Assembly: GCF_004324835.1 (NCBI RefSeq)
Contig: NW_021163190.1
Location: forward strand, 255,242-319,241
Length of the DNA: 64,000 nt
Source: Dendronephthya gigantea
Lineage: Eukaryota
Reading direction: 5' to 3'
Shown here: positions 39,201 to 64,000 of the stretch, piece after piece
How the letters are laid out: each line of letters begins with the position of its first letter
Numbering within the stretch: the first letter of the stretch is position 1
Made by a program: the position numbers and the translations under genes
The notes under the pieces: model-generated
Databases searched by the model: none
What the model saw: the letters and a program-made list of their open reading frames with translations, nothing else
What the model was told of the DNA's origin: nothing

Positions 39201-42200
39201 ACACTGGATCAATAAGAGATGATCCTTACTGGACCTCTAGGAAGAACAGTTTAGAACTGATAGAGCTATCCAGTATAAATAAAGTTAGTTTAGTTTAGGT
39301 TTCCTCCTGTAGTAAAACTGGATCAATAACAGATTATCCTTGCTGGACCTTTAGGAAGAACAGCTTAGAACTAAAATAAATCTTAGAGGAACCTATGTGA
39401 TTTCAATTTTAGGAGAAAATAGCTGGCAAATATTTCCTTACCTGGTCGAGGATGACAGCACTTTATTGACAATGTTCAAGTATTCGTCTGTTGTCTTCGA
39501 AAGACTTTCAAGATGACAACCGCACGCTTTGTATTTTGCTTCGTCGCTGCTTCGCGTTGAGAAATTCGTCGCTTCGTTTACATTTAAGATGTCTTTAATT
39601 AACTAAAGAAGAATAAAAATTAGCCTCGATAAATTGGAAATCTATTTTTAATATTTTGAGTATTTTATTATATACCTTTGGGGGAAAAATAGTCAAATTT
39701 AACCAAAATATTGTCGATATAAAAAAGAGCGGGAAAACTTCCGTCAATTTCCGGAATGATACGAGAACTTCCCGCGCTTTCCGATACTAACTCGCGGCCT
39801 TTGATTGGCTTAGGAACAGATTTCACTTGTTCGCTTGACCAATCAGATTATCTGTTCGGTAATGTTAGCCAATCAGAACGTACCTGACAGAGATCCTGTT
39901 TTTCTGCAATAACTCGCTTTGTTTTAATTTCTTTCACGTATTCCTCGTTGTGTGGAACGAGCGAGTAAAACTCCTGAGAATATTTCCCCAAATTTTCATC
40001 CGAAGCATCGCCTTTGTCGAGAATTTCTCGAATAGCTTGCAATACTCCTTCAGCTTTTGAGATATCTTCCAGTTTGAGCTGTTCAACCGAATCGCTGAGT
40101 AGAGAACTCAGCTCTCCGATCGCTTCAGACGAGATGCTGTGAACAAGCGCCTTCACAGGAGGAGACAGATTTTCTTTGTTCAATACTTCACTGGATATAT
40201 TGTTCTGAAATGAGTCAAAATACAAACTTAAAATCAGTAAGCTCTGTTCTAAGCTGTTCTACCTAGAGGTCCAGTAATGATCATCTCTTATTGATCCAGT
40301 GTTACTACAGGAGGAAACCTAAACTAAACTAACTTTATTTATACTGGATAACTCTATCAGTTCTAAACTGTTCTTCCTAGAGGTCCAGTAAGGATCATCT
40401 CTTATTGATCCAGTGTTACTACAGGAGGAAACCTAAACTAAACTAACTTTATTTATACTGGATAGCTCTATCAGTTCTAAACTGTTCTTCCTAGAGGTCC
40501 AGTAAGGATCATCTTTTATTGATCCAGTGTTACTACAGGAGGAAACCTAAACTAAACTAACTTTATTTATACTGGATAGCTCTATCAGTTCAAAACCTTT
40601 TCATGACTTACAGAAATCATTTTATGCGATCCAACACCAGGAGGAAAGGCTGAGAATTGCCGACGGTATTCGGGCTGTTGTTGTGAACAGAAAAGGGAAT
40701 ACAATTGCTCAGCAGTATCGGAGTTGTCGGCAAAACGACATTCCTTTTTGTCAGGTTTCTCATTCACATCAATTCCCTGAAAGAAAGCAACGTTTTAAAT
40801 GAAGAAAATAAAATTCAAACTACAAAATTACCGCGAAAGCTTACACTACAAGAACTTAAATGTAACCTACTGGGGCTGGTTGTATCAAGCCCGTTTAGCT
40901 TAAACGGTGGATAAGTCAAAATTAAATAACACTTTTACACTGAACTCTCTTGAATGAGTCAACTTGAATTCTATGCACTGAATATGTAGTTGTAAACAGT
41001 ATCTTTGTATTAAGGTTAAAAACATTTAGTTCGCTTGTTAAATAATTCGATAAACTTGCTTTTTATTTTGAACTTGTCCACCGTGTAAGTTAAACGGGCT
41101 TGATACAACCGGCCCCTGTACACTGAGAGATAATGCTAAGCCAAGAAGAAGCTGTTTTAAACGGTACAATCTAACAAGTTCTCCGCTTGTCAAACCTTTT
41201 GAAGGATTCCAGAATGAGAGAATATACGATGACTTGGATGTGATTTTTCGATGTCAATCTCACCTTCCTTGGCAGTACTGATATGCAGTTCAATAGCGAC
41301 AAAACGAAACAAACCATTTTTGTCAGATTTCTAGAAAATATTTAAGTATTCCTTGTTAGTTTACGGGTCAGGTAATCCGTTTTCAATCTTCATCAAAATG
41401 CGTGTCCATGCAGTAGTCACGTATAGCTTAGCCTAGAGCTAGCCTTTCAAGCGAAGAAACTTTCTATAACCGGTTATTTAAACGATATTGGAGCAAGTTA
41501 GCCGTTAGTTAGTTTTGAGATTTGTGTGGCGTTACCTTGTGGGCAAAATTTAAGAGGAAGTTACCTTAAACCACGAATGTTTAACGATTTCAAAATCATC
41601 AGATGGAAAGAAAGGAATAGACTCGTTATCTTGATTAAACTGATAAACCCTACGGTAGAAAAGTACATTTGAAACGTCAAACTATTACAGAAGGAAAATA
41701 TAGGGGAAATTATATGCATTCTACGAATACGGCAGGGGCCCGGCGGTTGTATCAAGCCCGTTTAGCTAAACGGTGGATACGTTCAAAATAGAAAGCAAGT
41801 CTGCCGTTTTATTCAACAAGCAACTAAATGTTTTCAACCTTTAATACAAAGATAGTGTTTACAATACATATTCAGTGCATAATATTCAAGTTGACTCATT
41901 CAAGAGAGATGTAAGAGTGTTATTTAATTTTGACTTATCCACCGTTTAAGCTAAACGGGCTTGATACAACCGGCCGCAGGTATACACAGTTTTTGAACGC
42001 GAACTTTTTCAAAACAAAACAAATTTCAGTTGTAAATTTCTTCGCGTAATAAATTTGGCGCCAACGGATAAACCCAGTGCGCTGATTGGTCAAAAATTGG
42101 CGGGCAATTACTAAACGAGCCGCGCTGATTGGTCGAATTTAGTCCCCCGTGATGCCTGACGACAGCAAGAAAGAAGAACACTTCGCAAACTCGAAATTTC

Positions 42201-45453: not shown

Positions 45454-48400
45454 CTAAAAGTGAAGAAACAGGTAACGTAAATAAACTGATAAATAAGCAA
45501 GTAAACAAAAACAAGTTATGGAAAACAAATAAACAAACAAACAGAGGAATACAAGAACAAATATTCTTCATTCAAACCTCCAATGTTTTTCCACTCTTCG
45601 ACTTAATGCAATCTTTTCACCAATTTCCGTACAGACAGGTTGTGTCAACACGATCTTTGCCAAATCAACTTTGACTGCGAGAACTCGACCACCAGTTGAT
45701 AGTGAACCAATGTTGACCATCAGAACTTCGTTTTTCGCTAGTTTTTGAACCTGGATAAAGATTATGGAGGAATCAATATTCATCCAATGTCACCACAGGA
45801 GGAAATCTGATCAATCCAGAATAGCTTTACCAGTTCTAAACTGTTCTTCCTAGAGGTCCAGTAAGGATCATCTCTTATTGATCCAGAGTTACTACAGGAG
45901 AAAACCTAAACTAAACTAACTTTATTTATACTGGATAGTTCTATCAGTTCTAAACTGTTCTTCCTAGAGGTCTGTTACATGATACATAATATCATGTAAT
46001 TAGATCGTATAATAATATAGAGTCATATACTTAGCTAGTATAAATATATATACCTTTTAGTTAGTTAACCTTATTCTCGCAAGACTTACATGCATGAGTA
46101 AGCAAAATAGGTATAAGCATGAGCAGGCAATAGCTATGTCCACGCCTAACCGCAAGTGCGTAGCTTGGTGTCAACCACAAAGCCATGGTAGCATGCGCTA
46201 CAACGCTCTGAATTGCGTAGGGGAAATTACTTGTTGTTTTGCAGTTTCTCTTAGCAAGCGTATATAAGTCGATCCGAGCGCAAATAGATATAAGCAAGCG
46301 ATTACAGCCATTACAAGATGCCATAACTGACGATGCTAATTTAAGCTGACGGCTGACCAAATGAACATTATAACATAGATGGATGTATGATGGATTTTCA
46401 ACTATGGAGCTATTCACTGTTACTCTTACCAGATAAGTTAATGTTAGGAAATAGGATATTGTTAATGTGCTTTGTAAAGTTTAAGTTGTTTATTGCTCAC
46501 TATAATTCACTAAATGTTTTAAAATGCTCAACACTGTTCTCATTTTTTGTTCGTTCTCACCGGCGAACGTAACAGGTCTAGTAAGGATTATCTCTTATTG
46601 ATCCAGTGTTACTACAGGAGGAAACCTAAACTAAACTAACTTTATTTATACTGGATAGTTCTATCAGTTCTAAACTGTTCTTCCTAGAGGTCCAGTAAGG
46701 ATCATCTCTTATTGATCCAGTGTTACTACAGGAGGAAACCTAAACTAAACTAACTTTATTTATACTGGATAGCTCTATCAGTTCTAAACTGTTCTTCCTA
46801 GAGGTCCAGTAAGGATCATCTCTTATTGATCCAGTGTTACTACAGGAGGAAACCTGAACTAAACTAACTTTATTTATGCTGGATAGCTCTATCAGTTCTA
46901 AACTGTTCTTCCTAGAGGTCTAGTAAGGATCATCTCTTATTGATCCAGTGTTACTACAGGAGGAACCTAAACTATTTTATCCAGAAACATTTAACATCAC
47001 ATATTGTATGTTTACTCTACCTTGGCAGCTTTTTTGTCACCCTCTGTTCGAACACCCAGCAACCTCCTCAACAAGAAATAACTGATTTCCAGTTCTGTGT
47101 AGATTTCTGGCAACGCATCAGCTGCTCCCAAAACCTTACCAAAGAAAATAAAATATTTTGTCAAAAGGAATTGAAAGCTGTAAATAATGAAACCTAAATG
47201 AAATTCTGTACTTACATGGCCAACCATTCTGTCAGCTCTGCAGAGAGTTGGGTCAATTTTCGTTCCAACACCTGGTTTATAATGAAGATAAATGATTATG
47301 AAATGCTGCTTTTTACATGTTTTAATGCAATGGAAATTTGATCAGATATCCCCCAATGCTCGAGTTGTCTGACACAAAAGGTCTACATGTGTCTTGGGTA
47401 AAGTTTGACAGATCTTTCTGCAAAGAGTTGGGTCAATTTTCGTTCCAACAACTAGCTTAAAATGAAGATAAATGGAATATGAAATGCAGTTTTTCACATG
47501 GTTTAAATGGAATGAAAAGTTTGATGAAATATCCCTGATACAAAAGACATGTTTCTTGGGTAAAGTTTGATGGATATTCTTACCAATTAGTCCACCAGGT
47601 ACGGCGTACTGAAGATCATTTTGTTCGGCGAACAACGAAACAATCACAGAACAGATTGGTTCCCAACGCAGTTTTCCTTTCTCATCTTTGGAAACAATGC
47701 CTGGACGTACTTCAATCTCTTGACCAACCTAAAATGTTGAATTAGAAATGAATGAAAAGTATAGACCTGCTTCAAATCAGACCTATTGCATCCTTTAAAG
47801 TTCTGGTAAGAGTAATAATTTAGTAGAGCTTTGTAGGTGGAGCTATCAATTGTACGCATTTCCACAACAATGTAAACTTGGAGTAGCTGGGAAGATCTCA
47901 AAGAAGCTGGTTAATTCGACTTGTTTGTTATGGAATGGGGACAGCAAAAAGTGATCAACCATACCTTTAAGACACCTTGGAGAATGCTTCCTCCAGCAAC
48001 ACCTCCTTTAAGGTCTTGTACTTCGCATCCAGGCTTATTCACGTCAAAAGAACGGATCACTGAAATCAAGCAAGTATTTCAAGGTTTAAATTGTGAATAA
48101 TTCTTCAACCAAAGCAAGATACAGTTTCATTACACCATTCATTCAACTGCAAATGATTCTACAGTATTTGGTTATAGTCATGTTGGTCAGTCATCTCACC
48201 AATGAGCCTTGGTTGTGATGTGAAGTCTCGTCTTGGGATGGGTATTTTCTTGCAAATATATTCACAGATGACTTCAATGTTGTATTTCAACTGCGCCGAG
48301 ATTGGAACAACTGGAGCTCCTTCAGCAACTGTACCTTTGGTAAGGATAACACACAAAATTATATTTTGTTTCAAACTGTTCTTCTAGAGGTTTAGTGAGG

Positions 48401-51400
48401 ATAATCTCTTATTGATCCAGTGTTACTACAGGAGAAAACCTAAACTAAACTAACTTTATTTATACTGGATAACTCTATCAGTTCTAAACTGTTCTTCCTA
48501 GAGGTCCAGTAAGGATCATCTCTTATTGATCCAGTGTTACTGCAGGAGGAAACCTAAACAAAACTAACTTTATTTATAAATGTAGGACAAAGCAAATACC
48601 TTCAACAAATTTCAGAATTTCTTTATACTGGTCCTTTGCTTGACTTTCTCGTACAAGATCAATTTTGTTTTGCAAGATGATAATATGTTCAAGTTTCATG
48701 ATCTCGATTGCTGCCAAATGTTCTGATGTCTGAGGTTGGGGGCACGATTCATTGCCAGCTGGAATAAAGATTGAAGAATACAGTTATGTACATGCCATAA
48801 AACTGTCACTTGTCAACTCTCATGCAACTCTTGTTCTGGTTTGATCAAGCAATGATAGTTGATGAAACTCTCATGTAAACTCTCACTTGTCAACTCTCAT
48901 GCAACTCTTGTTCTCGTTTGATCAAGCAATGATAGTTGATGAAACTCTCATGTAAACTCTCGCTTGTCAACTCTCATGCAACTCTTGTTCTCGTTTGATC
49001 AAGCAATGATAGTTGATGAAACTCCCATGTAAACTCTCGCTTGTCAACTCTCATGCAAGTCTTGTTCTTATTTGATCAAGCAATGATAGTTGATGAAACT
49101 CTCATATAAACTCTCGCTTGTCAACTCTCATGCAACTCTTGTTCTCGTTTGATCAAGCAATGATACTTGATGAAACTCTCATGTAAACTCTCGCTTGTCA
49201 ACTCTCATGCAACTCTTGTTCTCGTTTGATCAAGCAATGATAGTTGATGAAACTCCCATGTAAACTCTCGCTTGTCAACTCTCATGCAACTCTTGTTCTC
49301 GTTTGATCAAGCAATGATAGTTGATGAAACTCTCATGTAAACTCTCGCTTGTCAACTCTCATACAACTCTTGTTCTCGTTTGATCAAGCAATGATAGTTG
49401 ATGAAACTCCCATGTAAACTCTCGCTTGTCAACTCTCATGCAACTCTTGTTCTCGTTTGATCAAGCAATGATAGTTGATGAAACTCCCATGTAAACTCTC
49501 GCTTGTCAACTCTCATGCAACTCTTGTTCTCGTTTGATCAAGCAATGATAGTTGATGAAACTCCCATGTAAACTCTCGCTTGTCAACTCTCATGCAACTC
49601 TTGTTCTCGTTTGATCAAGCAATGATAGTTGATGAAACTCTCATGTAAACTCTCACTTGTCAACTCTCATGCAACTCTTGTTCTCGTTTGATCAAGCAAT
49701 GATAGTTGATGAAACTCCCATGTAAACTCTCGCTTGTCAACTCTCATGCAACTCTTGTTCTCGTTTGATCAAGCAATGATAGTTGATGAAACTCTCATGT
49801 AAACTCTCACTTGTCAACTCTCATGCAACTCTTGTTCTCGTTTGATCAAGCAATGATAGTTGATGAAACTCCCATGTAAACTCTCGCTTGTCAACTCTCA
49901 TGCAACTCTTGTTCTCGTTTGATCAAGCAATGATAGTTGATGAAACTCTCATGTAAACTCTCGCTTGTCAACTCTCATGCAACTCTTGTTCTCGTTTGAT
50001 CAAGCAATAATAGTTGATGAAACTCTCATGTAAACTCTCACTTATCAACTCTCATGCAACTCTTGTTCTCGTTTGATCAAGCAATGATAGTTGATGAAAC
50101 ATTTAACCCTCCCATTTTAACACATTGGAATGGAAATCTCACCAATTAGCAACATTGCGGCGTCCATAACGGCTGCTCCGTTCAACATGGTTGCCATAAG
50201 AATGTCGTGACCTGGGCAATCCACGAAAGAAACATGTCTACAAAATAAACAATCATTTCTCTATGAATAGATTTTAGAAAGTGTTCTATCAAGATTTACA
50301 ACGCACAAAAATTCATGGTTTGTAAGAGTTTATGTACACAAACCTCACTAACTGCGATTTACCCTGGCAACCTGGTCTTTCACATGGTATGATGTCTTCG
50401 CGAGCGCTTCCTGCTGATCGATAACAGCTGGGCCTCTGACAACTGGGGTTGCTGCATTTGTAGATCTAAGAAATATTTTTCTTGAAATATGGGGTAGATA
50501 CTGTAGGCATTCTATTTTCTGCAATGAACTACATATATTCTTTGAAATATGCTACAGCAATGGGTAAGGTAAGGAAAATTATCCAGAGTTTCTGATTTCT
50601 TTTGTCTGTCAGTGAAGAAATATTAAAATTGTATGGCTAATTCCAAGGCTAATTGTCGGTGGAGTAAATAAACTTTTGGGTAAAAATAAATAAGAAATGT
50701 TCGGAATAGAATTATCTTGTGTTAATCAAGGGCAAATCTAAACAAAAATCAGTCTAGTTGAGAGGCCTTGGGTTTGTTGCAAATGCACTAGACTTAAATA
50801 TTAAGCTTAGTGGCTCTTGTTTTAGTTGATAGGTTCTTCTAATATTTTAGATCCATACATTCAAGACGAAATGTCAAGTCTATAACTATCAATATATGTA
50901 GTGATCATTGTACAGTACGTGATTAATTAAAGGTCTGTTCACACAATACAAATTTATCAGATCCAATTCACTTCTGATGGATTTTTTATAATCTGTTGAC
51001 TTGCAAAGTATACGGGCAGCAAATCAACTGAAGCCAATGCAGACTGTTTTATCAATAACAAACTATATTCCATACATCAGAAGTGAGTTGGACCCGACAA
51101 AGTTGTACAGTCTGAACAGGCCTTAATTTGTTTAAGTATTTATATAACCATAGTACCTTTGCATTAGCATAGCCAAGCTTGATTGTGATATTTCGTTCAA
51201 GTTCGTTTTTAAATCGGACAGTCTGGAAAATAAACAAGCATATAGCAGGTTGTCGCAAAATTTGATGACAACATAAAATGCTGTTTATAATGTCTGAGAT
51301 TTATATCTTTCAGAAGTCGCAGTTTTGACGGAAGATGAACTTTGCTACCAAGTTATTATGATAGCTCTCTATTCTAACTCAGGCAAAATGCCATGATAAA

Positions 51401-51676: not shown

Positions 51677-52497
51677 GAAATTAATGAAATTTACATTATT
51701 GAAATATATTATTTCCTGCAATTGCATAAGCCTTCAGAGGCAAGATTACATCTTAAACCTGTTCATTGCAAATCCATGAAGACGTACATGGTGTAGAGAG
51801 TTGAAACTAAGTAATCATATTTTAACTTTGTCATCATTGGTAGAGCAATACTAACCAATATTTATAGTTGCTTGACGGCTGATTACTTCTGGTGTTAGAG
51901 GATTTAGTTCCTCGATTTTCTATAAAATTTAAAAGACATAACCTTTTCAGCTCAGGCATTAGCTTGCAATGCACCCAGATGTGGCCTACTTTAGTATTTT
52001 ACTCTGTCTAATGTCAGATGATTTTACTCATCAGTGGAAGAGTACTGTCAGTTAATAAGTTAACAAAACTATCTGTCAGTGTCTCTTGTTAACCCATTAG
52101 CTTGCAATGCACCCAGCAACTGATCTGGTTAACTTGCACACGAATCTTTGCACAAATATTTTACCAAAAACAGCCTGAGATTGCCTTAACTTCTATTTAA
52201 ATATCTTACAAATAGTTTAGTTTACAAAGAAGAATCAACCATTCCACAATAATAAGAATTCAAAGCATTATTAGATCTCGAAATAAGACTCATTCCTGAG
52301 TCAGATCATGCCGTAGAAACCACATAAAAAGCGATAATTTTTGCAGTATAAACTCACTTCATATCTACAAAGGTAAAACTATACATAGGGACCAAGATCT
52401 TTGTAGGACGGGGAAAGGATTGGAATAAAATGAATATGCTTACCAATTTTGATAAATCCTGCTTTGATAAGCGAGGCTGGCCTACCTCGGTGCTCAT
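45396..52497 (-). CDS. EIF2S3: eukaryotic translation initiation factor 2 subunit gamma, complete 14-exon gene. Exons: 52444-52497, 51856-51919, 51612-51673, 51157-51222, 50344-50465, 50143-50237, 48600-48758, 48200-48334, 47965-48059, 47584-47728, 47216-47271, 47021-47134, 45578-45750, 45396-45453
   Basis: Spliced product [18 protein letters not shown]|[22 protein letters not shown]|[20 protein letters not shown]|[22 protein letters not shown]|[17 protein letters not shown]...[15 protein letters not shown]|[31 protein letters not shown]|[36 protein letters not shown]...|[22 protein letters not shown]...|[14 protein letters not shown]...|[20 protein letters not shown]...[21 protein letters not shown]|[18 protein letters not shown]|[38 protein letters not shown]|[23 protein letters not shown]...[11 protein letters not shown]|[18 protein letters not shown]; all junctions have GT-AG and consistent phases. 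Confidence 0.92.
45578..45750 (-). CDS. EIF2S3: EIF2S3 exon 13
   Basis: ORF 45568-45783; ctttatccag|GTTCAAAAACTAGCG...CATTGGAG|GTTTGA. Confidence 0.9.
45826..45965. repeat. SatA (reverse, about 1.2 units, plus a degenerate copy 30 nt from the exon-13 acceptor) in EIF2S3 intron 12
   Basis: SatA homology. Confidence 0.8.
46575..46975. repeat. SatA array (reverse, about 3.5 units) in EIF2S3 intron 12, ending 45 nt from the exon-12 donor
   Basis: SatA homology. Confidence 0.9.
47021..47134 (-). CDS. EIF2S3: EIF2S3 exon 12
   Basis: ORF 47012-47227; ttctttggtaag|GTTTTGGGAGCAGCT...GCCAAG|GTAGAG. Confidence 0.9.
47216..47271 (-). CDS. EIF2S3: EIF2S3 exon 11
   Basis: ataaaccag|GTGTTGGAACGAAAATTGACCC...GGCCAT|GTAAGTAC. 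Confidence 0.85.
47216..47520. repeat. local tandem duplication (two units of about 180 bp) carrying EIF2S3 exon 11 plus a degenerate second copy (pseudo-exon at about 47400-47460) in intron 10
   Basis: 47395-47520 aligns to 47215-47340 (agagttgggtcaattttcgttccaaca..aatgaagataaatg...ttgggtaaagtttga). Confidence 0.7.
47584..47728 (-). CDS. EIF2S3: EIF2S3 exon 10
   Basis: ORF 47342-47647 extended; cattttag|GTTGGTCAAGAG...CTAATTG|GTAAGAAT. Confidence 0.9.
47965..48059 (-). CDS. EIF2S3: EIF2S3 exon 9
   Basis: tgatttcag|TGATCCGTTCTTTTGACG...TTAAAG|GTATGG. Confidence 0.9.
48200..48334 (-). CDS. EIF2S3: EIF2S3 exon 8
   Basis: ORF 48159-48374; ttaccaaag|GTACAGTTGCTGAAGG...CTCATTG|GTGAGA. Confidence 0.9.
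48365..48585. repeat. SatA (reverse, about 2 units) filling EIF2S3 intron 7 (48335-48599)
   Basis: SatA homology. Confidence 0.9.
48600..48758 (-). CDS. EIF2S3: EIF2S3 exon 7 (NKID motif)
   Basis: ttattccag|CTGGCAATGAATCG...GTTGAAG|GTATTTGC. Confidence 0.9.
48790..50090. repeat. 78-bp minisatellite, about 16 copies (caactctcatgcaactcttgttctcgtttgatcaagcaatgatagttgatgaaactc[ct]catgtaaactctcgcttgt), filling EIF2S3 intron 6
   Basis: Seen directly; motif related to the subterminal repeats of the MITE at 56020-56450. Confidence 0.95.
50143..50237 (-). CDS. EIF2S3: EIF2S3 exon 6 (DCPGH switch region)
   Basis: ttttgtag|ACATGTTTCTTTCGTGGATTGCCCAGGTCAC...ATTG|GTGAGA. Confidence 0.9.
50344..50465 (-). 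CDS. EIF2S3: EIF2S3 exon 5 (zinc-ribbon Cys cluster)
   Basis: tttcttag|ATCTACAAATGC...TTAGTGAG|GTTTGT. Confidence 0.8.
51157..51222 (-). CDS. EIF2S3: EIF2S3 exon 4
   Basis: ttttccag|ACTGTCCGATTTAAAAACGAA...GCAAAG|GTACTA. Confidence 0.9.
51612..51673 (-). CDS. EIF2S3: EIF2S3 exon 3 (G1 motif GHVAHGKST)
   Basis: tttctag|GCACAATTGGTCACGTGGCTCATGGAAAGTCAACG...CAG|GTATTG. Confidence 0.9.
51856..51919 (-). CDS. EIF2S3: EIF2S3 exon 2
   Basis: ttttatag|AAAATCGAGG...ATATTG|GTTAGT. Confidence 0.85.
51955..52115. repeat. SatB (about 1.1 units) in EIF2S3 intron 1
   Basis: SatB homology. Confidence 0.85.
52444..52497 (-). CDS. EIF2S3: EIF2S3 exon 1 (ATG at 52497)
   Basis: ATGAGCACCGAGGTAGGCCAGCCTCGC...AAATTG|GTAAGC. 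Confidence 0.85.
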
Positions 52498-53820: not shown

Positions 53821-56800
53821 CTAGATAATGTAGATATTTATTACATATTATATTTATTACATATTATATTTATTACATATTAAATTTATTACATATTATA
53901 TTTAAGGGTAGATATTTACTACAACCTGAGGCGGTTCGAGGTTTAAATAACAAAGAGGAATTTCATTTTAAACTAATCGGTGTATTTGGTGACATTTTTG
54001 AGGGAAAGCCAATCAGAATGCGTACATTTTAATTACTTCATGTAAAATGGTACATATTGTACTTTTTATCAAAATTTATGCATTCTGATTGGCTTACTGA
54101 AAATGTAAACAAACTTGCTGATTGGCTAAAACGAAATTCTAAATAAATCGATTGAAATCGTCTGAAAAACCACGAAAAAAATCGATTTTTTAAAGTTTTT
54201 TTTTAAGTCCTGGCAAAATATTGCTGTAAGAATAAACTTCACGCATACGAATTCAAAAGTTTACTCTAGAAAGCAATCGTATTTTGGTATAATACTAATC
54301 CTAATATTCACAAAAAGCATTTTCTTAAAAATAAACCGTACAAATTCTCCGCTATTAAACATGAGCCCGGTTACCGAGATTTAAAGAAGCGTTAAATTGA
54401 CTTTGAGTTTTTGAAATGAGTAAATAACATGATCCTGGTAGTCGTGAAGTCATTCTAACAATAGCATGCAATGTTTCTGTTTCAAAAAGACTTTTCTCAA
54501 TACTTAAAATTCCGTTTTACGCTTCGTTAAATCTCCGTAACCTGGCTCATGCGAAGAACGTTTAAAATAAGAATTTGTTTACTTTCTCAGGCTTAGGGCG
54601 TGTTTATATGATCCCGTCTAGCCGGGACGGGATGTTTTCATCCCGCTTAGCCGGGAAACTCGCCTACGCGGGATGGCGTGTTTATATGGAGTTCATTTTG
54701 TGGTGCAGGTTCCTTCGACGGCATGTTTTATTGTAGAAAACGAGTATGCCAATATATACACATGCTCCTAATGTATGTTAATCGCGAATCATCTCGGCCA
54801 AGCGGGATGGAGTGTTTATATGGCAATTTCTCGTCCTGTCTAAGCGGGATCCCGGCAAGAAGTGCCGAAGAAAAGTGGTCATATAAACACTAATTAGCGT
54901 TTGTACTACAAGCGGGATCTCGGAAACTGTCCCGTCCCGGCTAGACGGGATCATATAAACAGGCCCTAAGTTGAGCTACCGTTGAATCAAGGACATATGC
55001 TCCACTTTGCTAAAAAGCATCTTCGATAGTTACTAATACTACGCTATTTTGTTTAAATGTGACTGAGTTTTGAACTTTACGACAGTGGTATGAATTTTAT
55101 CCACACATTTTATACAAAACTTTTGAAAGCTTACATGATGATGACCATATCCTTTCTCGTCTGGCAGAGATGGATCCAAAAATCTTTTCGGCTTTTTGTC
55201 ATCTAGAAGTTTCAAATAGTTCGGATATTGTTACCAAATTTAGCTCCATCAGTTCTAAACTGTTCTTCCTAGAGGTCCAGTAAGGATCATCTCTTATTGA
55301 TCCAGTGTTACTACAGGAGGAAACCTAAACTAAACTAACTTTATTTATACTGGATAGCTCTATCAGTTCTAAACTGTTCTTTCTAGAGATCCAGTAAGGA
55401 TCATCTCTTATTGACCCAGTGTTGCTACAGGAGGAAACCTAAACTAAACTAACTTTATTTATACTGGATAGCTCTATCAGTTCTAAACTGTTCTTCCTAG
55501 AGGTCCAGGAGGGATCATCTCTTATTGATCCAGTGTTACTACAGGAGGAAACCTAAACTAAACTAACTTTATTTATACTGGATAGCTCTATCAGTTCTAA
55601 ACTGTTCTTCCTAGAGGTCCAGTAAGGATCATCTCTTATTGATCCAGTGTTACTACAGGAGGAAACCTAAACTAAACTAACTTTATTTATACTGGATAAC
55701 TCTATCAGTTCTGAACTGTTCCTCCTAGAGGTCCAGTAAGGATCATCTCTTATTGATCCAGTGTTACTACAGGAGGAAACCTAAACTATATTTATATTGG
55801 ATGAACAAGATACAATAACATACTTTTTCCACAGTATCTGGACAACTCAGCTTTTTTAATGTTTGATTCCTCGAACTTAACCGCAGCAATTGTTCGTCTG
55901 AATTCTTTGCCATTCACATCCATATGAATTGTCAGCACCTGAGTAGATTAGATTGATTTTTAAAGCTATTAAAGTGTTTAATATCCTTATGCATTCAACA
56001 GGACTCTTGATTCTTAAGCCCTGGTCAAACGAGAATGATAGTTGATGAGAGTTGAGAAGCGAGAGTTTGCACGAGAGTTTTCCAAACTCTCGATGCGCCG
56101 GTCAAACGAGAATGAGAGTTGAGAACGAGAGTTGATTACGGCGCGCATTAATTTCGTCCTTACTCCACTTCGTTTTGCTATTTTTTTGTTTCTGCCCGTT
56201 GTTTTCAGAAGATTTCTTTTTTTTTTTCAAAAAAATTGCAAACCGCTAGCTGTTTTGCAACTCTCATCAACTCTCATGACCGATCAAACGCGCCCAAACT
56301 CTCATCAACTCTCATCAAAATTTGAACCAGTTCAAAGTCAATGAGAGTTGATGAGAGTGCACGAGAGTGTATGAGAGTTCGCGGTCAAACGCAAGCGAGA
56401 GTTGCAACTCTCATCAACTCTCATTCTCGTTTGACCAGGGCTTAAAGGTTTCATCCATAAAAATTACCTGAACATCGACTTGTTCAACTCGCTTTTCATT
56501 GATGAATTGCACTTGTTCTTCGATCAAATATTGATGTCCCGATTCCAGCTCCTTTCTCATCACCATTACGTGAATTATGACAGGAAGAATGCGAACATCT
56601 TTGGCAGAGTAAACTGTGAAATGAATACACAACAATTAGCCCAGAACTTATCCAAATCTTCTCTGTCAAAAGAATTTAGGCTGTATGCACATGAAGGTAA
56701 ATCAGTTATGATTTTTGGCACTTCACTCGAGGTAGGTAAATTCTAATGGTTCTTAGGGTGTTAATTTCGAGTGGAATTATACACACTTCAAATTCAAGCC

Positions 56801-58765
56801 AGGAACAGTTGATGGAAAATGAGTCAACTATCGGTCCTCCGGCAGAAATCGAACCTATGCTTTTGCGATGCCGGTGCAATGCTCTTGCCACTGAGCTACA
56901 GAGGTAGCTGACAAGAGCAAGCGTGGTTAGTGTGCACATGATGGTAATCATCTGTGTGCACATGAGCGTCGTTTTCGAACATTCTCAAAATCGTTTTCAT
57001 CCAGATTATTGCTTTGACACTTTGTCAACATGATCCAAGGGAAAATATGCTGAATATGTTAAATTAGCTTCAAATTGACTGTGTTTGAAACAGTTTGAAA
57101 TGAAAACGAAAATGTAAATGCGTGCACATGCATAGCCTTAGAATGAAAAAGCTGAACCTGACTGCACCATTAGTGGAAGGTGTAAAGTCTGATTCAAAAG
57201 CTATGCTGGAAACTTAGTTTCAAAATATCACTGCTGTAGAAAACATTCAAAGTGAAGAATATATTTATAATAGCAAATAAATTTAGGTTGTTCGTACCAA
57301 TCTCAGCAGTGAGGTCGTACTTCGTAAGAACATCTAGTTCTGTGAGTTTCCCATTAATTCTGACACTGTCTTCCTGGATTGTAATGTTCAATTTCACCTG
57401 AGAATTAATACAACAGCATTGTGAGCAATAAATTATTTATTAAATGTTAAAGTAGGTCACATCTGGGTGCATTGCAAGCTAATGGGTTAACAAGAGACAC
57501 TGACAGATAGTTTTGTTAACTTATTAACTGACAGTACTCTTCCACTGATGAGTAAAATCATCTGGCATTAGACAGAGTAAAATACTAAAGTAGATCACAT
57601 CTGGGTGCATTGCAAGCTAATGGTTATCACAGATAGTTTTGTTTACTTGGTAATGACAATGATCAAGTGGTGAGTAAAATCATCTGGCTGATGGAACTTA
57701 TAAAATAAATAAACGTTTATAAAAGTACATTTAGAGACGCCTACTATTGCAAAGTCATTGCTAAATTCAGCTGAGGCAATCTTAAAGACACAGCTAGCAA
57801 CTTTGAGGAATTTTTCCCGTTAACAAGAGGCAAAATTGTGCTTTGTCATGTTTTTGTGGGGGAGGAATTTCATCAACAACACGCAATAATAGTTATGTAA
57901 TAACTTGCTTTCTATAACGTTATATAAAAATATAGATTAAGAAAACTTCCGACCGCAAATTTCCCACTTAAAACGACTATCTGAAGACGTGCAGGTGTTT
58001 TCAAAAAGGGTATTAAAACAAGACTTGTACAATATGAATAATGTTCAGATATTGACACATGCTGGGAATATTTCGTCGCTTTTATTTTGCGATTTTATGA
58101 ACAACGATCTTAGTTGATAAAACCAAGTTTCGTTTCGATTAAAAGCAGGAGATTTTGAAGCGATGTTTTGAAGCTTCGATCGCAGTTTTGTTCAGATCAA
58201 TCGAAGCAATTTTTGCGTTTTAAAAGGAAAAAGATTAGAGAAAGTTTTGGCAGCTAAAGGCGCCATAGACAAGGACATGTCACAACTTATTTCCTTCTTT
58301 CCCAAATTGGATTCCCGGTTACAAAAGAAAACAAAACAAAGTACCAACGTTTCCTCGAAGAAAATACACTGCAATTCAACTGCCTTGGCTGCAGATTTTC
58401 GTTTTGATTCAAAACGAAACAATCTGAACTTTGTGTGAAAGCCGTGTCGCAGTTAAATTCAAAGTATTTTAAGCTCTTTCTATGCCGAATATAAACGCCG
58501 CATTTCTATGTTTACAAATACAAGACTCTATCATCCATTACTGGGCTACTTTTAACTAGTTTTCTCTTCGAATTCATGCACAAATACTTACAATAACTTC
58601 GGTTTCTCGTCTGCCGTTTGCGGAGTCTTCCTCCTCGATGATTTTCACAGAGATAGAGAGCTTCTCTTTTGAATGTTTTGTGCCAGATTTGAGGTCGTTT
58701 TCGCCGGCAAAAACTGCCTGGAATATCGCCAAAAACAAGACGAAATGGCCAAGCACTTCAAACAT
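53560..58765 (-). CDS. type-I single-pass membrane protein of unknown family, 6 exons (58592-58765, 57298-57397, 56468-56613, 55824-55938, 55135-55202, 53560-53820), about 285 aa
   Basis: Exon 1 has the signal peptide MFEVLGHFVLFLAIFQAVFAG; beta-rich ectodomain exons (VKLNITIQEDSVRINGKLTELDV..; VYSAKDVRILPVIIHVMVMRKELESGHQYLIEEQVQF...; VLTIHMDVNGKEFRRTIAAVKF..); His-rich juxtamembrane segment; TM helix VAILVGLVLVVLASMMCCAMCCC with a Cys cluster; acidic cytoplasmic tail ..EFEMEDDEAEPLPEKLAFDDKEVLIA*; all junctions GT-AG with matching phases. Confidence 0.55.
54591..54966. mobile_element. TIR element (about 375 bp): ggcttagggcgtgtttatatgatcccgtctagccgggacggg ... cccgtcccggctagacgggatcatataaacaggccctaag, with internal cgggatgg[ac]gtgtttatatgg direct repeats
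   Basis: Terminal inverted repeats of about 40 bp seen directly; lies in the intron 53821-55134. Confidence 0.55.
55135..55202 (-). CDS. TM-protein exon 5
   Basis: aacttctag|ATGACAAAAAGCCG...CATCATCAT|GTAAGC. Confidence 0.5.
55235..55795. repeat. SatA array (reverse, about 5 units) filling the TM-protein intron 55203-55823
   Basis: SatA homology; starts 35 nt from one exon and ends 30 nt from the other. Confidence 0.9.
55824..55938 (-). CDS. TM-protein exon 4
   Basis: ctactcag|GTGCTGACAATTCAT...GGAAAAA|GTATGTTA. Confidence 0.5.
56020..56450. mobile_element. MITE (about 430 bp) with TIR gccctggtcaaacgagaatgagagttgatgagagttg and (gagagttga)n subterminal repeats
   Basis: Inverted termini ccctggtcaaacgagaatga.. 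/ ..tcattctcgtttgaccaggg; internal motifs match the 78-bp minisatellite at 48790-50090. Confidence 0.6.
56468..56613 (-). CDS. TM-protein exon 3
   Basis: ORF 56414-56635; ttcacag|TTTACTCTGCC...GTTCAG|GTAATTTT. Confidence 0.5.
56826..56905 (-). other. tRNA-like sequence (D-arm GTAGCTCAGTGGCAAGAGCA and T-loop GGTTCGATTTC) without a convincing acceptor stem; probably a tRNA-derived SINE fragment or pseudogene
   Basis: Motifs and spacing seen on the minus strand; similar tRNA-like 3' half at 38030-38100 (GGTCGCTGGTTCGATTCCCACAGTGG). Confidence 0.25.
57298..57397 (-). CDS. TM-protein exon 2
   Basis: attctcag|GTGAAATTGAAC...GAGATTG|GTACGAAC. Confidence 0.5.
57435..57665. repeat. SatB (reverse, about 1.5 units) in TM-protein intron 1
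   Basis: SatB homology. Confidence 0.85.
58592..58765 (-). CDS. TM-protein exon 1 (signal peptide)
   Basis: ORF 58574-58765; donor ATT|GTAAGTATT. Confidence 0.45.
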
Positions 58766-59612: not shown

Positions 59613-59779
59613 ATGGCTCATCTTCGAAGACTCGCATCGCTTTCCACGAGAAGATCTTTGAGGAAATCCTTGTCAAGTTACTTGTATTCGTCTTCGACAA
59701 AACTTCAAAACAACGTCGCTTTATGTGGTACCACTTATCGTCATGTTAGTTCGAGTGGAGCAAAATTACAGCCGGACAC
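59613..59779 (+). CDS. FDX2: FDX2 exon 1
   Basis: ATG at 59613; donor GTAAGT at 59780. Confidence 0.75.
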
Positions 59780-61158
59780 GTAAGTCGATGAAAATGTATA
59801 TTTAAATATGTATATATTTCACGTTTTAGTGTTTACTCGAAGTCATATGGCGATTGAGTGATTAATTAAAACGAATTCCCGTTTTTATGTAATTCTTCAA
59901 TGTTCACTTGGCTATATTTTGCTAAAAAAAACGACACCAACAATAATTTTACTCATGGGAAGAGTTGTTAACCCATTAGCTTGCAATGCACCCAGATGTG
60001 ACCTATTTAAGTATTTTACTCTGTCTAATGTCAGATGATTTTACTCATCAGTGGAAGAATACTGTCAGTTAATAAGTTAACAAAACTATCTGTCAGTGTC
60101 TCTTGTTAACCCATTAGCTTGCAATGCACCCAGATGTGACCTATTTAAGTATTTTACTCTGTCTAATGTCAGATGATTTTACTCATCAGTGGAAGAGTAC
60201 TGTCAGTTAATAAGTTAACAAAACTATCTGTCAGTGTCTCTTGTTAACCCATTAGCTTGCAATGCACCCAGATGTGTTTTTTTAGTTTTCAAATAATTTA
60301 GGAGGATATTGCCTCCTTTTGACTGGCCAACCAGTGACTGGCACCGGATTTCACGGCTTCAAAGGTTTGTTTGTTTCTTCTCCAGAGCATCAATCACATT
60401 TCACGATCGAGATGGCGACAAGAAAACAGTTTCAGCCAAATATGGAGATTCACTTCTTGATGTTGCAAAGAATAATGATATTGATTTGGAAGGTAAGAAT
60501 GACTACACTGCTCTCTTTTAGCCATGAGTTTATTAACACGTTTTGAATATCTTCTCTTCATCAAATTTCACATCGAGGTGCTTGTGAAGGAACTCTGAGC
60601 TGTTCAACTTGTCATCTTATATTTGATCCGGACGAATTTGCCAAGTTGGATCTACCTGAACCAGATGATGAAGAACTAGATATGCTTGATCTGGCCTATG
60701 GTTTGACACCAACGTAAGAGATGATCCTTACTGGACCTCTAGGAAGAACAGTTTAGAACTGATAGAACTATCCAGTATAAATAAAGTTAGTTTAGTTTAG
60801 GTTTCCTCCTGTAGTAACATTGGATCAATAAGAGATGATCCTTACTGGAACTCTAGGAAGAACAGTTAAGAACTGATAGAGTTATCCAGTATAAATAAAG
60901 TTAGTTTAGTTTAGGTTTCCTCCTGTAGTAACACTGGATCAATAAGAGAAGATCCTTACTGGACCTCTAGGAAGAACAGTTTAGAACTGATAGAGCTATC
61001 CAGTATAAATAAAGTTAGTTTAGTTTAGGTTTCCTCCTGTAGTAACACTGGATTTTTTCTCCAGATCAAGACTAGGATGTCAGGTTGACGTAACTGAAAA
61101 GTTTGATGGAATTACTGTAAAAGTACCTGAAGCAACGAGAGACGCAAGAGATTTGTAA
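59613..61158 (+). CDS. FDX2: mitochondrial [2Fe-2S] ferredoxin (adrenodoxin-type, FDX2-like), 4 exons: 59613-59779, 60302-60492, 60578-60713, 61065-61158
   Basis: Spliced product [20 protein letters not shown]... (transit peptide) ...[109 protein letters not shown]; cluster-ligating Cys motif [11 protein letters not shown]...C; junctions cacg|GTAAGT, tttag|G, GAAG|GTAAGA, cgag|GT, ACG|GTAAGAG, ttctccag|A with consistent phases. Confidence 0.85.
59965..60285. repeat. SatB (about 2.2 units) filling most of FDX2 intron 1
   Basis: SatB homology. Confidence 0.9.
60302..60492 (+). CDS. FDX2: FDX2 exon 2
   Basis: ORF 60309-60521 frame; donor GTAAGA at 60493. Confidence 0.8.
60578..60713 (+). CDS. 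FDX2: FDX2 exon 3 (Cys ligands)
   Basis: Acceptor catcgag|; donor GT at 60714, which is the first base pair of a SatA unit. Confidence 0.85.
60717..61060. repeat. SatA (about 3 units) making up essentially the whole of FDX2 intron 3 (60714-61064)
   Basis: The intron starts gtaagagatgatccttactgg (the SatA unit has caataagagatgatccttactgg) and ends ..tagtaacactggattttttctccag. Confidence 0.9.
61065..61158 (+). CDS. FDX2: FDX2 exon 4 (stop TAA at 61156-61158)
   Basis: Acceptor ttttttctccag|ATCAAGACTAGGATGTCAGG. Confidence 0.85.
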
Positions 61159-61574
61159 CCGCCTCTGGAAATGGAATTTACTGTGGATGTAACATTAAAT
61201 ATTCTAAACATGCTACAAACGTGTGAAACTTCTAGCAATAAATTTTATTATTTTAATAATTTATTGTACCTGAGGATGGCCGCGCTATTGACATAATTTT
61301 TCTGTCTTCCAAATACTACAGTATTTTGATAATAATAAATGTATTTTATTATTTCTGGTTTCTTCTGTGGCAATATCATTGAATGAAGAGTATTTAGAAT
61401 ATTGTGAATGTTTTATCAGTTGAGATTATGTACAAACATAAATATGTCTAATGTTTACTAAGTCATTTTCTGCAGTCCATTGCTCAAGTCAGACATAACC
61501 AATGCCTACATCAATACAATTTCCTGATAAATATGTACTCTCTCATATTTCCAACATTATAACAATTTTCTCAG

Positions 61575-61925
61575 TTAATAGTTAACAAAACTATCTGTCA
61601 GTGTCTCTTGTTAACCCATTAGCTTGCAATGCACCCAGATGTGACATACTTTAGTATTTTACTCGGTCTAATGTCAGATGATTTTACTCATCAGTGGAAG
61701 AGTATTGTCAGTTAATAAGTTAACAAAACTATCTGTCAGTGTCTCTTGTTAACCCATTAGCTTGCAATGCACCCAGATGTGGCCTACTTTAGTATTCTAC
61801 TCTGTCTAATGTCAGATGATTTTACTCTTCAGTGAAAGAGTACTGTCAGTTAATGAGTTAACAAAACTATCTGTCAGTGTCTCTTGTTAACCCATTAGCT
61901 TGCAATGCATCTGAATGTAATCTAT
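61575..61925. repeat. SatB array (about 2.4 units)
   Basis: SatB homology. Confidence 0.9.
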
Positions 61926-62149
61926 TAAGACATTAAGTTATGTTTCTTCATTTTTTCACTGTCTATTATTGACCAATCTCATGATGAAGCACCCCACAGT
62001 TCCTGTCAGCTCTCATTCGTCTGATCATCGCCTGGTGCCTTCTTCTCATTGTGTGTTCCTAAAATGTCCTTTTCAACCTCTTCTAGACTGATATTTTTAT
62101 CATTCAAGGCCTTCTACAAAACAAACAATAGGAAATCTATCAAAATTAT

Positions 62150-62760
62150 ATCTTTTGTTAACTCATTAGCTTGCAATGCACCCAGATATGACCTATTTTA
62201 GTATTTTACTCTGTCTAATGCCAGATGATTTTACTCATCAGTGGAAGAGTACTGTCAGTTAATAAGTTAACAAAACTATCTGTCAGTGTCTCTTGTTAAC
62301 CCATTAGCTTGCAATGCACCCAGATGTGACCTACTTTAGTATTTTACTCTGTCTAATGTGAGATGATTTTACTCATCAGTGAAAGAGTACTGTCAGTTAA
62401 TAAGTTAACAAAACATCTGTCAGTGTCTTTTGTTAACCCATTAGCTTGCAATGCACCCAGATGTGACCTACTTTAGTATTTTACTCTGTCTAATGCCAGA
62501 TGATTTTACTCATCAGTGGAAGAGTACTGTCAGTTAATAAGTTAACAAAACATCTGTCAGTGTCTTTTGTTAACCCATTAGCTTGCAATGCACCCAGATG
62601 TGACCTACTTTAGTATTTTACTCTGTCTAATGCCAGATGATTTTACTCATCAGTGGAAGAGTACTGTCAGTTAATAAGTTAACAAAACATCTGTCAGTGT
62701 CTTTTGTTAACCCATTAGCTTGCAATGCACCCAGATGTGACCTACTTTAGTGTTTTATAA
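62150..62760. repeat. SatB array (about 4 units)
   Basis: SatB homology. Confidence 0.9.
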
Positions 62761-63039
62761 ATCTTTGTGTTAATCTGAGCTTACCAAGACACAGGCCCGA
62801 TACGACTTGAACAATTTTTCACATGGTTCTGATTTAGTGTCGCCACGAAGGAAGTTTTCTGTGTACCAAGTATTGAAACATATATCATATTTTTTCTTTA
62901 GGTCATTGCATTCTTCAGAAATACTGTTCATGATTTCTTTAATACAATGTTTCAGTTTTCACCACCCCTCTAATGATTAAAATTGGAACAAATTTTATGT
63001 TTGAGTTTGACAGTACAGCATATATAAAGCTCAGTTGAA

Positions 63040-63260
63040 AAATCTGGCAATAATAATCCATGCTCAGCAAATCCTAATCCACGAATTTAATCCATGAGAT
63101 TAAGCTAGGATTAATTCAGGTTTTGTTCTGATTGGTTCTGATTGCGACTTCTGAGAATCTGAGCAATCACAGAATTCTCAATTTTTTATTTTATGGTTAC
63201 ATTTAGGATTAGGGGTGTGACTAATCATCCACAACCTAATCTAAGCCCTAATCCGAACCT
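63040..63260. repeat. degenerate telomere-like island (aatcctaatcc..., ttaggattagggg, ccctaatcc, cctaatc) flanking a central pair of CCAAT boxes (ctgattggttctgattg), directly upstream of the MSTO1 start
   Basis: Seen directly. Confidence 0.5.
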
Positions 63261-63324
63261 AATCTCAAGGAATAAACTCGTGTATTTAGGATTACGGAAT
63301 CTGTTTCGTGAGGTCAATTCAGAA

Positions 63325-63915
63325 ATGGCGGATCAAGGAGAAAGTCTGGATTTAGCTTCTCCTAAAGAGAGAGAAGTTATCACTTTTCAAGTTGGAAATT
63401 ACAGCAATTTTGTCGGCGGACACTACTGGAATTTACAAGAGAGCTTGTTCAAAGAGGCCTCTGCTAAAAAGAACTCTTTTAATGAACTCTCGCAGGATAT
63501 TTTGTACAGACACGGGTTGAATTTTGAAACTGGTCGAAGCTCATATAAGCCTCGTGTTGTATCATTTGACTTGAAAGAAAACGTTAGAAACTTTCCTAGC
63601 GCAGATGAAACGGCAACAGACGATACTGATGATGGTATTTTTTGGGATGGAAATGTGGAGAAATACGACAGAGGAAGTAAAAATAGCGGTTCAAATACAG
63701 CCGATGAAGTTGGTTTATTTTGGACAGATTTCACGTTGTCTTGTTTCCACGATAAATCTTCGCAAGTCGTTGACCTTCTGCATAATCAGATGTCTGAAGG
63801 ATTTGATCATTTTGGCTGTGGAGAGATGCTCTTTAAGTCTGGAAAGTTTTACAACGAGTTCGAGGACAGGCTGCACTTTTTTTCAGAGGAGTGCGATAGG
63901 TTACAAGGCTTTCAG
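63325..63915 (+). CDS. MSTO1: misato (MSTO1/DML1) homolog, first coding exon (197 codons); the gene continues beyond the window
   Basis: ORF 63193-63951; Met at 63325 begins MADQGESLDLASPKEREVITFQVGNYSNFVGGHYWNLQE (misato N-terminal tubulin-like motif); ..EFEDRLHFFSEECDRLQGFQ| then donor GTCTGT at 63916. Confidence 0.85.
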
Positions 63916-63919
63916 GTCT

Positions 63920-64000
63920 GTTTTTTACAGTACTCTTCCACTGATGAGTAAAATCATTTGACATTAGACAGAGTAAAATACTAAAGTAGGTCACATCTGG
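63920..64000. repeat. SatB (reverse orientation) starting 4-10 nt downstream of the MSTO1 exon-1 donor
   Basis: gtactcttccactgatgagtaaaatcatttgacattagacagagtaaaatactaaagtaggtcacatctgg is the reverse complement of the SatB unit. Confidence 0.85.

Follow-up and report, generated by a model that had tools for sequence, protein, structure and literature searches.

Target-site duplications and/or terminal inverted repeats accompany many, but not all, families of introners. Published working criteria for an introner are similarity to both intron ends, in register (within ~10 intronic nucleotides) and in at least four introns; secondary insertion of a repeat into an existing intron is a false-positive class of introner screens (PMC9860276, Gozashti et al. 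2022). Here, we analyzed a window of 64,000 nucleotides (nt) from the octocoral Dendronephthya gigantea (RefSeq assembly GCF_004324835.1, contig NW_021163190.1, positions 255,242 to 319,241 of the forward strand; all positions below are counted from the first base of this window). It contains a mitochondrial ferredoxin gene whose third intron consists almost entirely of SatA, a dispersed tandem repeat with a unit of 114 bp. A preliminary description had proposed that the intron was either created by this repeat or completely overwritten by it. Our results point to the second of these: with a probability of roughly 0.8, intron 3 is an ordinary ancient GT-AG intron in which a fragment of SatA has taken the place of the interior.

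Ferredoxin gene structure and age of intron 3

The ferredoxin gene has four exons on the plus strand, and its spliced coding sequence encodes a product of 167 amino acids (aa) with a Pfam Fer2 domain. Exon 1 (59613 to 59779), which holds the start codon and presequence, is followed by intron 1 (59780 to 60385; 606 nt, phase 2), exon 2 (60386 to 60492), intron 2 (60493 to 60577; 85 nt, phase 1), exon 3 (60578 to 60713, ending GGT TTG ACA CCA AC), intron 3 (60714 to 61064; 351 nt, phase 2), and exon 4 (61065 to 61158), which encodes SRLGCQ through ARDL and the stop codon. Intron 2 is repeat-free and gives the size of an array-less intron in the same gene. The boundaries first proposed for intron 3 proved accurate: the intron begins with GT, ends with AG, and separates GLTP(T) from SRLGCQ by splitting a Thr codon in phase 2. 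The original label of the gene, FDX2, was not upheld. In searches against the PDB, adrenodoxin (FDX1) chains scored 121.8 bits (E 2.6e-34), compared to 88 to 89 bits for ferredoxin-2 chains 8rmc and 2y5c, and the closest named homologs are labeled adrenodoxin or 2Fe-2S ferredoxin-like. By these similarity scores and homolog names, the gene is predicted to be of the adrenodoxin/FDX1 type, and we refer to it as FDX1.

The exon structures of four orthologs were mapped on their genomic loci, with the requirement that the spliced translation reproduce the protein. These orthologs come from the octocorals Paramuricea clavata and Xenia sp., the scyphozoan jellyfish Rhopilema esculentum, and the pigeon Columba livia (adrenodoxin). 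All three introns, including intron 1, are identical in position and phase in the four orthologs, and intron 3 lies in phase 2 within the Thr codon of GLTxT^SRLGCQ in 5/5 species. The length of intron 3 is 351 nt in D. gigantea, 822 nt in P. clavata, 64 nt in Xenia sp. (with no repeat), 685 nt in R. esculentum, and 4562 nt in C. livia. Intron 3 is a conserved GT-AG (U2-type) intron older than the cnidarian-bilaterian split.

This comparison bears directly on an introner-like gain, in which insertion of SatA into a continuous exon would have made both the intron and its splice signals. Such a gain could be suspected because the repeat spans +2 to −12 of the intron, because the unit sequence ATAAGAG is one substitution from a donor, and because the unit holds pyrimidine-tract/TAG and TAAC motifs. 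However, the same intron is present in the repeat-free Xenia, as well as in the jellyfish and the bird, at the same codon and in the same phase, and creation of the intron by the repeat is thereby refuted, on the very criterion that the preliminary description had named as decisive. What we found agrees with an overwritten intron, namely, an ancient position with an array filling nearly the whole interval.

Composition of intron 3

Tandem Repeats Finder reported an array in intron 3 at 60715 to 61053 (plus strand, sense to the gene), with a period of 114, 3.0 copies, 96% matches, no indels, and a score of 636. Alignment to the family consensus gave 2.97 units (60715 to 60828, 60829 to 60942, and 60943 to 61053), running from unit phase 0 to unit phase 110, and SatA accounts for 97% of the intron. 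The units are 97.4 to 99.1% identical to the SatA consensus, and their variants are not common to the units of this array. The non-repeat sequence amounts to 12 nt, made up of G at 60714 and TTTTTCTCCAG at 61054 to 61064, and the earlier impression of about three units and essentially nothing else is borne out. The 11-nt segment at the 3′ end consists of a polypyrimidine tract and AG and is probably a remnant of the old intron; the corresponding end in Paramuricea is TCTTTCTCAG. Since ten further SatA arrays lie in the window, the repeat in intron 3 is not a chance resemblance. An assembly artifact or contamination is unlikely, as the array lies between conserved exons and the same arrangement occurs in an independent assembly of another genus.

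The contribution of SatA to the 5′ splice site is smaller than had been proposed. According to the preliminary description, one change in the unit had turned caataagag into cgtaagag, so that the repeat itself supplied the GT donor. Immediately upstream of T60715 stand the five bases CAACG, which match the corresponding bases of the unit (ATCAA) at 0/5 positions; coding sequence is conserved at CCAAC, and every ortholog has the +1 G in its donor. Within the 5′ splice site GTAAGAG (60714 to 60720, plus strand), G(+1) is thus ancestral, TAAG is ambiguous, and AG (+6 and +7) comes from SatA. The ambiguity arises because the Paramuricea donor, accaac/GTAAGT, lies in unique sequence, so that +2 to +5 can be assigned to neither the old intron nor SatA. 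Judged from these alignments, SatA would have contributed at most +2 to +7 of the donor, and clearly only +6 and +7. The 5′ junction of the array appears to fall inside TAAG, which occurs both in the SatA unit (ATAAGAG) and in the old donor, read as GTAAGT in Paramuricea.

SatA arrays in the window

SatA forms 11 arrays of 1.7 to 5.0 units in the 64 kb, all with a period of 114, no indels, and 94 to 97% matches (Tandem Repeats Finder), which places it among dispersed short-array satellites. Long open reading frames flank 11 of the 11 arrays. Five arrays lie in introns of PARP4, three in two introns of the eIF2-gamma gene, and one in FDX1. We compared the PARP4 gene structure with those of the stony coral Porites evermanni and amphioxus (Branchiostoma) and the eIF2-gamma structure with that of the fish Danionella. 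All eight host introns compared (of ten) are ancient, i.e., the five in PARP4, the two in eIF2-gamma, and the one in FDX1; the arrays beginning at 9791 and 55241 were outside the comparison.

The five PARP4 host introns all match Porites introns in position and phase, and three of them also match amphioxus introns. The gene is on the minus strand. Shared with both species are the introns at 23320 to 23788 (phase 0; antisense array of 3.8 units at 23332 to 23767, plus strand), 38920 to 39441 (phase 2; antisense array of 3.9 units at 38932 to 39372, plus strand), and 40205 to 40611 (phase 0; sense array of 3.1 units at 40243 to 40596, minus strand). Shared with Porites are the introns at 28016 to 28393 (phase 0; Porites aa 782, phase 0; sense array of 2.8 units at 28047 to 28363, minus strand) and 29017 to 29363 (phase 1; antisense array of 2.6 units at 29023 to 29321, plus strand, with a 3′ unique flank of 6 nt). 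Both eIF2-gamma host introns match Danionella introns. The first, at 45751 to 47020 (phase 0, AAK/VQKL), holds two minus-strand arrays, one of ~1.7 units with a degenerate edge at 45777 to 45972 and one of 3.5 units in sense orientation at 46574 to 46974; the second, at 48335 to 48599 (phase 1), holds a sense array of 1.8 units at 48373 to 48578 (minus strand). The arrays outside the comparison comprise 4.8 units at 9791 to 10336 (plus strand), in a putative host intron at 9761 to 10362 (plus strand), and 5.0 units at 55241 to 55802 (minus strand), also in a putative host intron.

SatA makes up 78 to 97% of eight of the nine introns with defined boundaries; in the remaining one, the eIF2-gamma intron with two arrays, its share is 47%. 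Unique flanks of SatA-bearing introns range from 1 to 69 nt on the 5′ side and from 6 to 38 nt on the 3′ side, and in four introns (FDX1 and three others) the 3′ unique flank is ≤12 nt. FDX1 intron 3 is the extreme of a general pattern. Compared with the working criteria for introners (PMC9860276), these flanks and the differing unit phases set SatA apart, and the arrays are out of register with the intron ends and lack target-site duplications. Together with the age of all eight compared host introns, this makes an introner-like gain highly improbable.

Variation along the SatA unit is uneven (chi-square P of ~2e-6); transitions and transversions number 83:43, and the consensus lacks CpG. Such unevenness could stem from mutational heterogeneity and does not prove constraint. 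Targeting of introns by SatA was considered and set aside, because the finding of 11/11 arrays in introns is, by a rough estimate, not clearly above chance in a gene-dense window whose non-coding DNA is mostly intronic. Eight of the 11 arrays are sense to the host gene although the sense strand bears AATAAA and a GT-rich tail, but these numbers are too small for significance; intronic repeats usually show an antisense bias, the opposite of the SatA counts. The literature searched contained neither the SatA sequence nor that of SatB (a second repeat family of the window, described below), and SatA was absent from 20.8 kb of Xenia and from the Porites, Rhopilema, and amphioxus loci examined. A viral or environmental source of SatA was considered and rejected on the basis of two 27-mers of the repeat, neither of which had a match in IMG/VR or JGI metagenome contigs.

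Proposed insertion of SatA arrays

Mean identity between SatA monomers is 96.1% within arrays and 95.9% between arrays. The monomers differ from one consensus by 1 to 3% in a star-like manner, and the changes are mostly private to single units. Growth in place from one inserted unit was rejected, as no private variants unite the units of an array and monomers are as similar between arrays as within them; these same features suggest a homogeneous source from which the arrays came in pieces of several units. When the 150-nt flanks of the 11 arrays were compared all against all, no shared sequence was found apart from one chance match of 12 nt. Junction direct repeats were 0 to 2 nt long in 10 of the 11 arrays and 5 nt (A-rich) in one; target-site duplications, whose presence at the SatA junctions had been raised as a question, were thus not found in any consistent form. 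Start and end phases are spread across the whole unit and differ between introns. The lack of shared termini and target-site duplications, together with arbitrary junction phases, argues for capture of array pieces at DNA breaks by end-joining rather than by a transposase.

These observations also bear on whether SatA is the internal repeat of a conventional nonautonomous transposon (a Helentron/Helitron type or a tandem-repeat miniature inverted-repeat transposable element [MITE]) whose ends were lost or overlooked. That route is documented for the spread of short satellite-like arrays in oyster and clam genomes (PMC7492417 and PMC3879986); start phases in our window are loosely clustered, with 6/11 between unit phases 55 and 78, and TCCA occurs on both sides of the Paramuricea array described below. 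With nothing shared among the flanks, no consistent junction repeat, and phases that cover the whole unit, we regard a transposon origin as unlikely.

The course of events that we favor for FDX1 intron 3, replacement of an old interior, would begin with a short ancestral intron, comparable to the 64-nt intron of Xenia or the 85-nt intron 2 of the same gene. SatA would have arrived ready-made, in pieces of several units, and would have been integrated by an end-joining or microhomology route with no transposase. Insertion would have been accompanied or followed by the loss of nearly all of the old interior; 12 unique nt are too few for a working intron, which indicates that most of that interior was lost at or after insertion. 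The allele may have persisted because SatA in the sense orientation replaces the lost signals: the repeat would provide a consensus-like donor extension (GTAAGAG) and a branch-point candidate (TAGTAAC), while the pyrimidine tract and AG would be old.

Splicing and the public gene model

With 11 unique nt left at the 3′ end of intron 3, the branch site must fall in repeat sequence. The candidate branch point GTAGTAAC (61039 to 61046, plus strand) lies within the last SatA unit, and its putative branch A (61045) precedes 61064, the final G of the 3′ splice-site AG, by 19 nt. TAGTAAC (61040 to 61046) is the sole TAAC-type branch candidate within range of the acceptor. Since 3′ unique flanks are similarly short in three other SatA introns, use of the repeat as a branch site is not special to FDX1.

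In exon 4, 14 codons differ from Paramuricea by synonymous changes only and four by amino acid changes, indicating that the exon is under purifying selection and, in turn, that intron 3 is probably still removed. The exon encodes the SRLGCQ cysteine, which, from what is known of adrenodoxin, is predicted to be the fourth Fe-S ligand. The best database match of the 167-aa product was D. gigantea LOC114541667, with 100% identity over 137 aa. This protein ends with GLTPT, precisely as expected of a read-through of the intron 3 donor to the TAA of ac/GTAAgag (60712 to 60717), and exon 4 with its cysteine is missing. The 137-aa model is either a misannotation caused by the repeat-filled intron or a product of real intron retention or intronic polyadenylation. 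An AATAAA motif is present in each SatA unit of the intron (60780 to 60785 and also at 60894 and 61008, plus strand) and is a possible intronic polyadenylation signal; a link to the 137-aa model is speculative.

An intronic small nucleolar RNA or other structured RNA was considered and rejected. No Rfam family matched inside intron 3 at E ≤ 5, and the folding of the SatA unit showed no excess stability over shuffled sequences (z = −0.8 in sense and −0.6 in antisense), apart from one hand-picked 90-nt sub-window with z = −2.7. A C-box-like GATGAT, a CTGA, and a 7-bp stem identified by eye do not fit the C/D consensus.

Comparison with Paramuricea

Intron 3 of Paramuricea clavata (3218 to 4039 of the locus) is likewise occupied by SatA, with 6.96 units that run in the same direction relative to the gene. 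Its unique flanks are GTAAGTTCCA and TCCATTATCTTTCTCAG. The SatA consensus sequences of the two genera are identical at 113/114 positions. Monomer identity across species is 95.0%, equal to that within species, and the monomers lie 2.4% and 3.4% from a shared consensus. Against this near-identity stands the divergence of the surrounding DNA in the single 7-kb locus compared: across the ferredoxin and TRIAP1-like genes, the two species differ at 39 of 62 fourfold-degenerate sites, i.e., these sites are saturated, and introns 1 and 2 align no better than shuffled sequence.

The two arrays reflect either recent independent colonization from a near-identical source (by horizontal transfer or from a constrained, "frozen" source) or an orthologous array that was kept uniform. 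For the orthologous array, SatA would have entered once before the Dendronephthya-Paramuricea split, and the difference between three and seven units, as well as the junctions, would stem from unequal exchange and edge deletions; as part of the same scenario, a TAAG-to-TAAG microhomology deletion would have set the array against the donor G in Dendronephthya. Such an array would account for SatA being sense in the same intron of both species with near-total replacement of the interior (unique flanks of 1 + 11 nt and 10 + 17 nt), and, starting from the Paramuricea state, a single deletion from one TAAG motif to another suffices to give the 5′ junction seen in Dendronephthya. In addition, two of six Dendronephthya variants, A at column 21 and T at column 53, are also present among the Paramuricea units (chance estimate of ~0.07). 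However, the junction phases differ at both ends (0/110 in Dendronephthya versus 22/17 in Paramuricea), and orthologous neutral DNA should be unrecognizable at the observed fourfold divergence and with unalignable introns, yet the monomers are near-identical. Chance co-occupancy of one intron is plausible when ~5 of 16 mapped PARP4 introns carry SatA, and a SatB-like copy in intron 1 with opposite orientations in the two species indicates that independent hits on one intron occur. On balance, descent of both arrays from one old insertion is possible but doubtful.

We also advance, tentatively and with no greater confidence, a broader proposal in which SatA is mobile as a "naked" tandem repeat, lacking the ends of a transposon, and owes its recent spread in two octocoral genera to a near-identical source. 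Such a repeat would be tolerated in short introns and able to take them over by means of its donor-, branch-point-, and pyrimidine-tract-like motifs. Under this proposal, the match at 113/114 consensus positions despite saturated fourfold sites would imply either horizontal transfer between octocoral lineages or strong constraint on the source.

Several points weigh against replacement of an ancient interior as the history of FDX1 intron 3. The removal of the intron is deduced from exon conservation only, and the sole D. gigantea protein returned, LOC114541667, is an exact read-through of the intron 3 donor. The insertion route is argued from negative evidence in 11 arrays, whose termini may have eroded. 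Finally, the presence of SatA in the same intron of Paramuricea, in the same orientation, may mean that a single older event followed by edge deletions, rather than an insertion in the Dendronephthya lineage, explains both arrays.

Other repeats and neighboring genes

SatB, the second dispersed tandem family, has a 138-bp unit and forms seven arrays (25833 to 26544, 51957 to 52116, 57447 to 57686, 59965 to 60276, 61571 to 61926, 62151 to 62757, and 63927 to 64000), 94 to 99% alike within and between arrays. SatB fills ferredoxin intron 1 (the array of 2.3 copies at 59965 to 60276) and the single intron of the neighboring TRIAP1-like (UPF0203) gene, which is ~620 nt long in D. gigantea versus ~65 nt in Xenia. 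In Paramuricea, single decayed SatB-like units (77 to 84% identity) occur in intron 1 (in opposite orientation), in the 3′ spacer, and in the TRIAP1 intron. The gene order ferredoxin, TRIAP1-like (minus strand), and Misato/tubulin_3 is kept between D. gigantea (61900 to 64000) and Xenia (10933 to 13142 of the locus), and the order of the first two genes is also kept in Paramuricea. Synteny with Xenia is limited to these downstream genes; none was found for genes upstream of ferredoxin.

PARP4 (vault PARP) spans 22566 to 44594 on the minus strand. About 10 of its 16 mapped introns, a set that leaves out the ~7.9-kb intron at 29659 to 37551, carry a tandem array of SatA, SatB, or units of 26, 93, or 96 bp, with SatA in ~5 of the 16. 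The other arrays include 33 copies of a 26-bp unit (24188 to 25045), two copies of a 93-bp unit (27133 to 27323), and a G-rich 14/96-bp array (27573 to 27880). This density of intronic arrays agrees with the 7.24% of the D. gigantea genome reported as tandem repeats (PMC6447388).

Next to the mapped exons of eIF2-gamma, on their upstream side in the orientation of the gene, a 77-bp tandem repeat occupies 1.3 kb at 48800 to 50100 (16.9 copies, 97% matches), and related short CAACTCTCAT-type repeats occur at 56108 to 56424. A tRNA-Ala gene at 56833 to 56905 (minus strand) has anticodon GGC (ARAGORN) and was the only Rfam match in the window at the gathering threshold (tRNA, 36.1 bits). Between 11400 and 21300 are nested long direct repeats in blocks of 200 to 300 nt with spacings of ~0.5, 1.0, 1.7, and 3.2 kb, 89 to 96% alike, as might result from tandem duplication of a multi-exon segment or from a composite repeat.

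Comparison with known systems

For introner screens, the case of FDX1 intron 3 disposes of an attractive false positive: though seemingly built of a repeat, this animal intron is best explained as an ancient one with a replaced interior, a class that such screens must filter. Judging by its sequence, an intron may keep working when all but ~12 nt of it has been lost, provided that the repeat that moves in happens to carry suitable splice motifs. Short tandem arrays are a main component of D. gigantea introns and affect gene annotation, and the public model of this gene appears to be truncated at a stop codon formed with SatA. The near-identity of SatA between genera whose synonymous divergence is saturated makes it possible to ask whether, within Cnidaria, a repeat was transferred horizontally or a satellite was "frozen."

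Horizontal transfer of a transposon is usually recognized by copies that are far more alike between hosts than are the synonymous sites of those hosts. SatA resembles horizontally transferred transposons, and also "frozen" or library satellites, in that its consensus is nearly unchanged despite diverged neutral sites. With the oyster Helentron-associated arrays and the clam DTC84 MITE (PMC7492417 and PMC3879986), SatA shares a dispersed distribution, variable copy number, star-like similarity, and a marine invertebrate host. Those arrays sit between conserved element ends, whereas none were found around the SatA arrays.

Like introners, SatA places near-identical sequence in many introns of one genome, reaches nearly both splice sites, and gives splice-site bases. 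Unlike introners, its host introns are ancient and its similarity is out of register with the intron ends, and SatA belongs to the class of secondary repeat insertions of PMC9860276. The closest likeness in form is to short euchromatic satellites, such as Tribolium TCAST-like elements, human alpha-satellite copies, and the Drosophila 1.688 family (PMC3411249, PMC7719264, and PMC7642928), which are ~100- to 170-bp monomers arranged head to tail in one to seven units, dispersed at genes and alike between loci, as is SatA. SatA differs from these satellites in that no large heterochromatic source array was seen (in the 64-kb window and a few kilobases of one relative), in its very high density (11 arrays in 64 kb), in its occupancy of most of the host intron, and in the splice-relevant motifs that come from the repeat itself. 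Intron 3 of the D. gigantea ferredoxin gene adds one more case to a phenomenon already known, that of short satellite arrays dispersed among introns.

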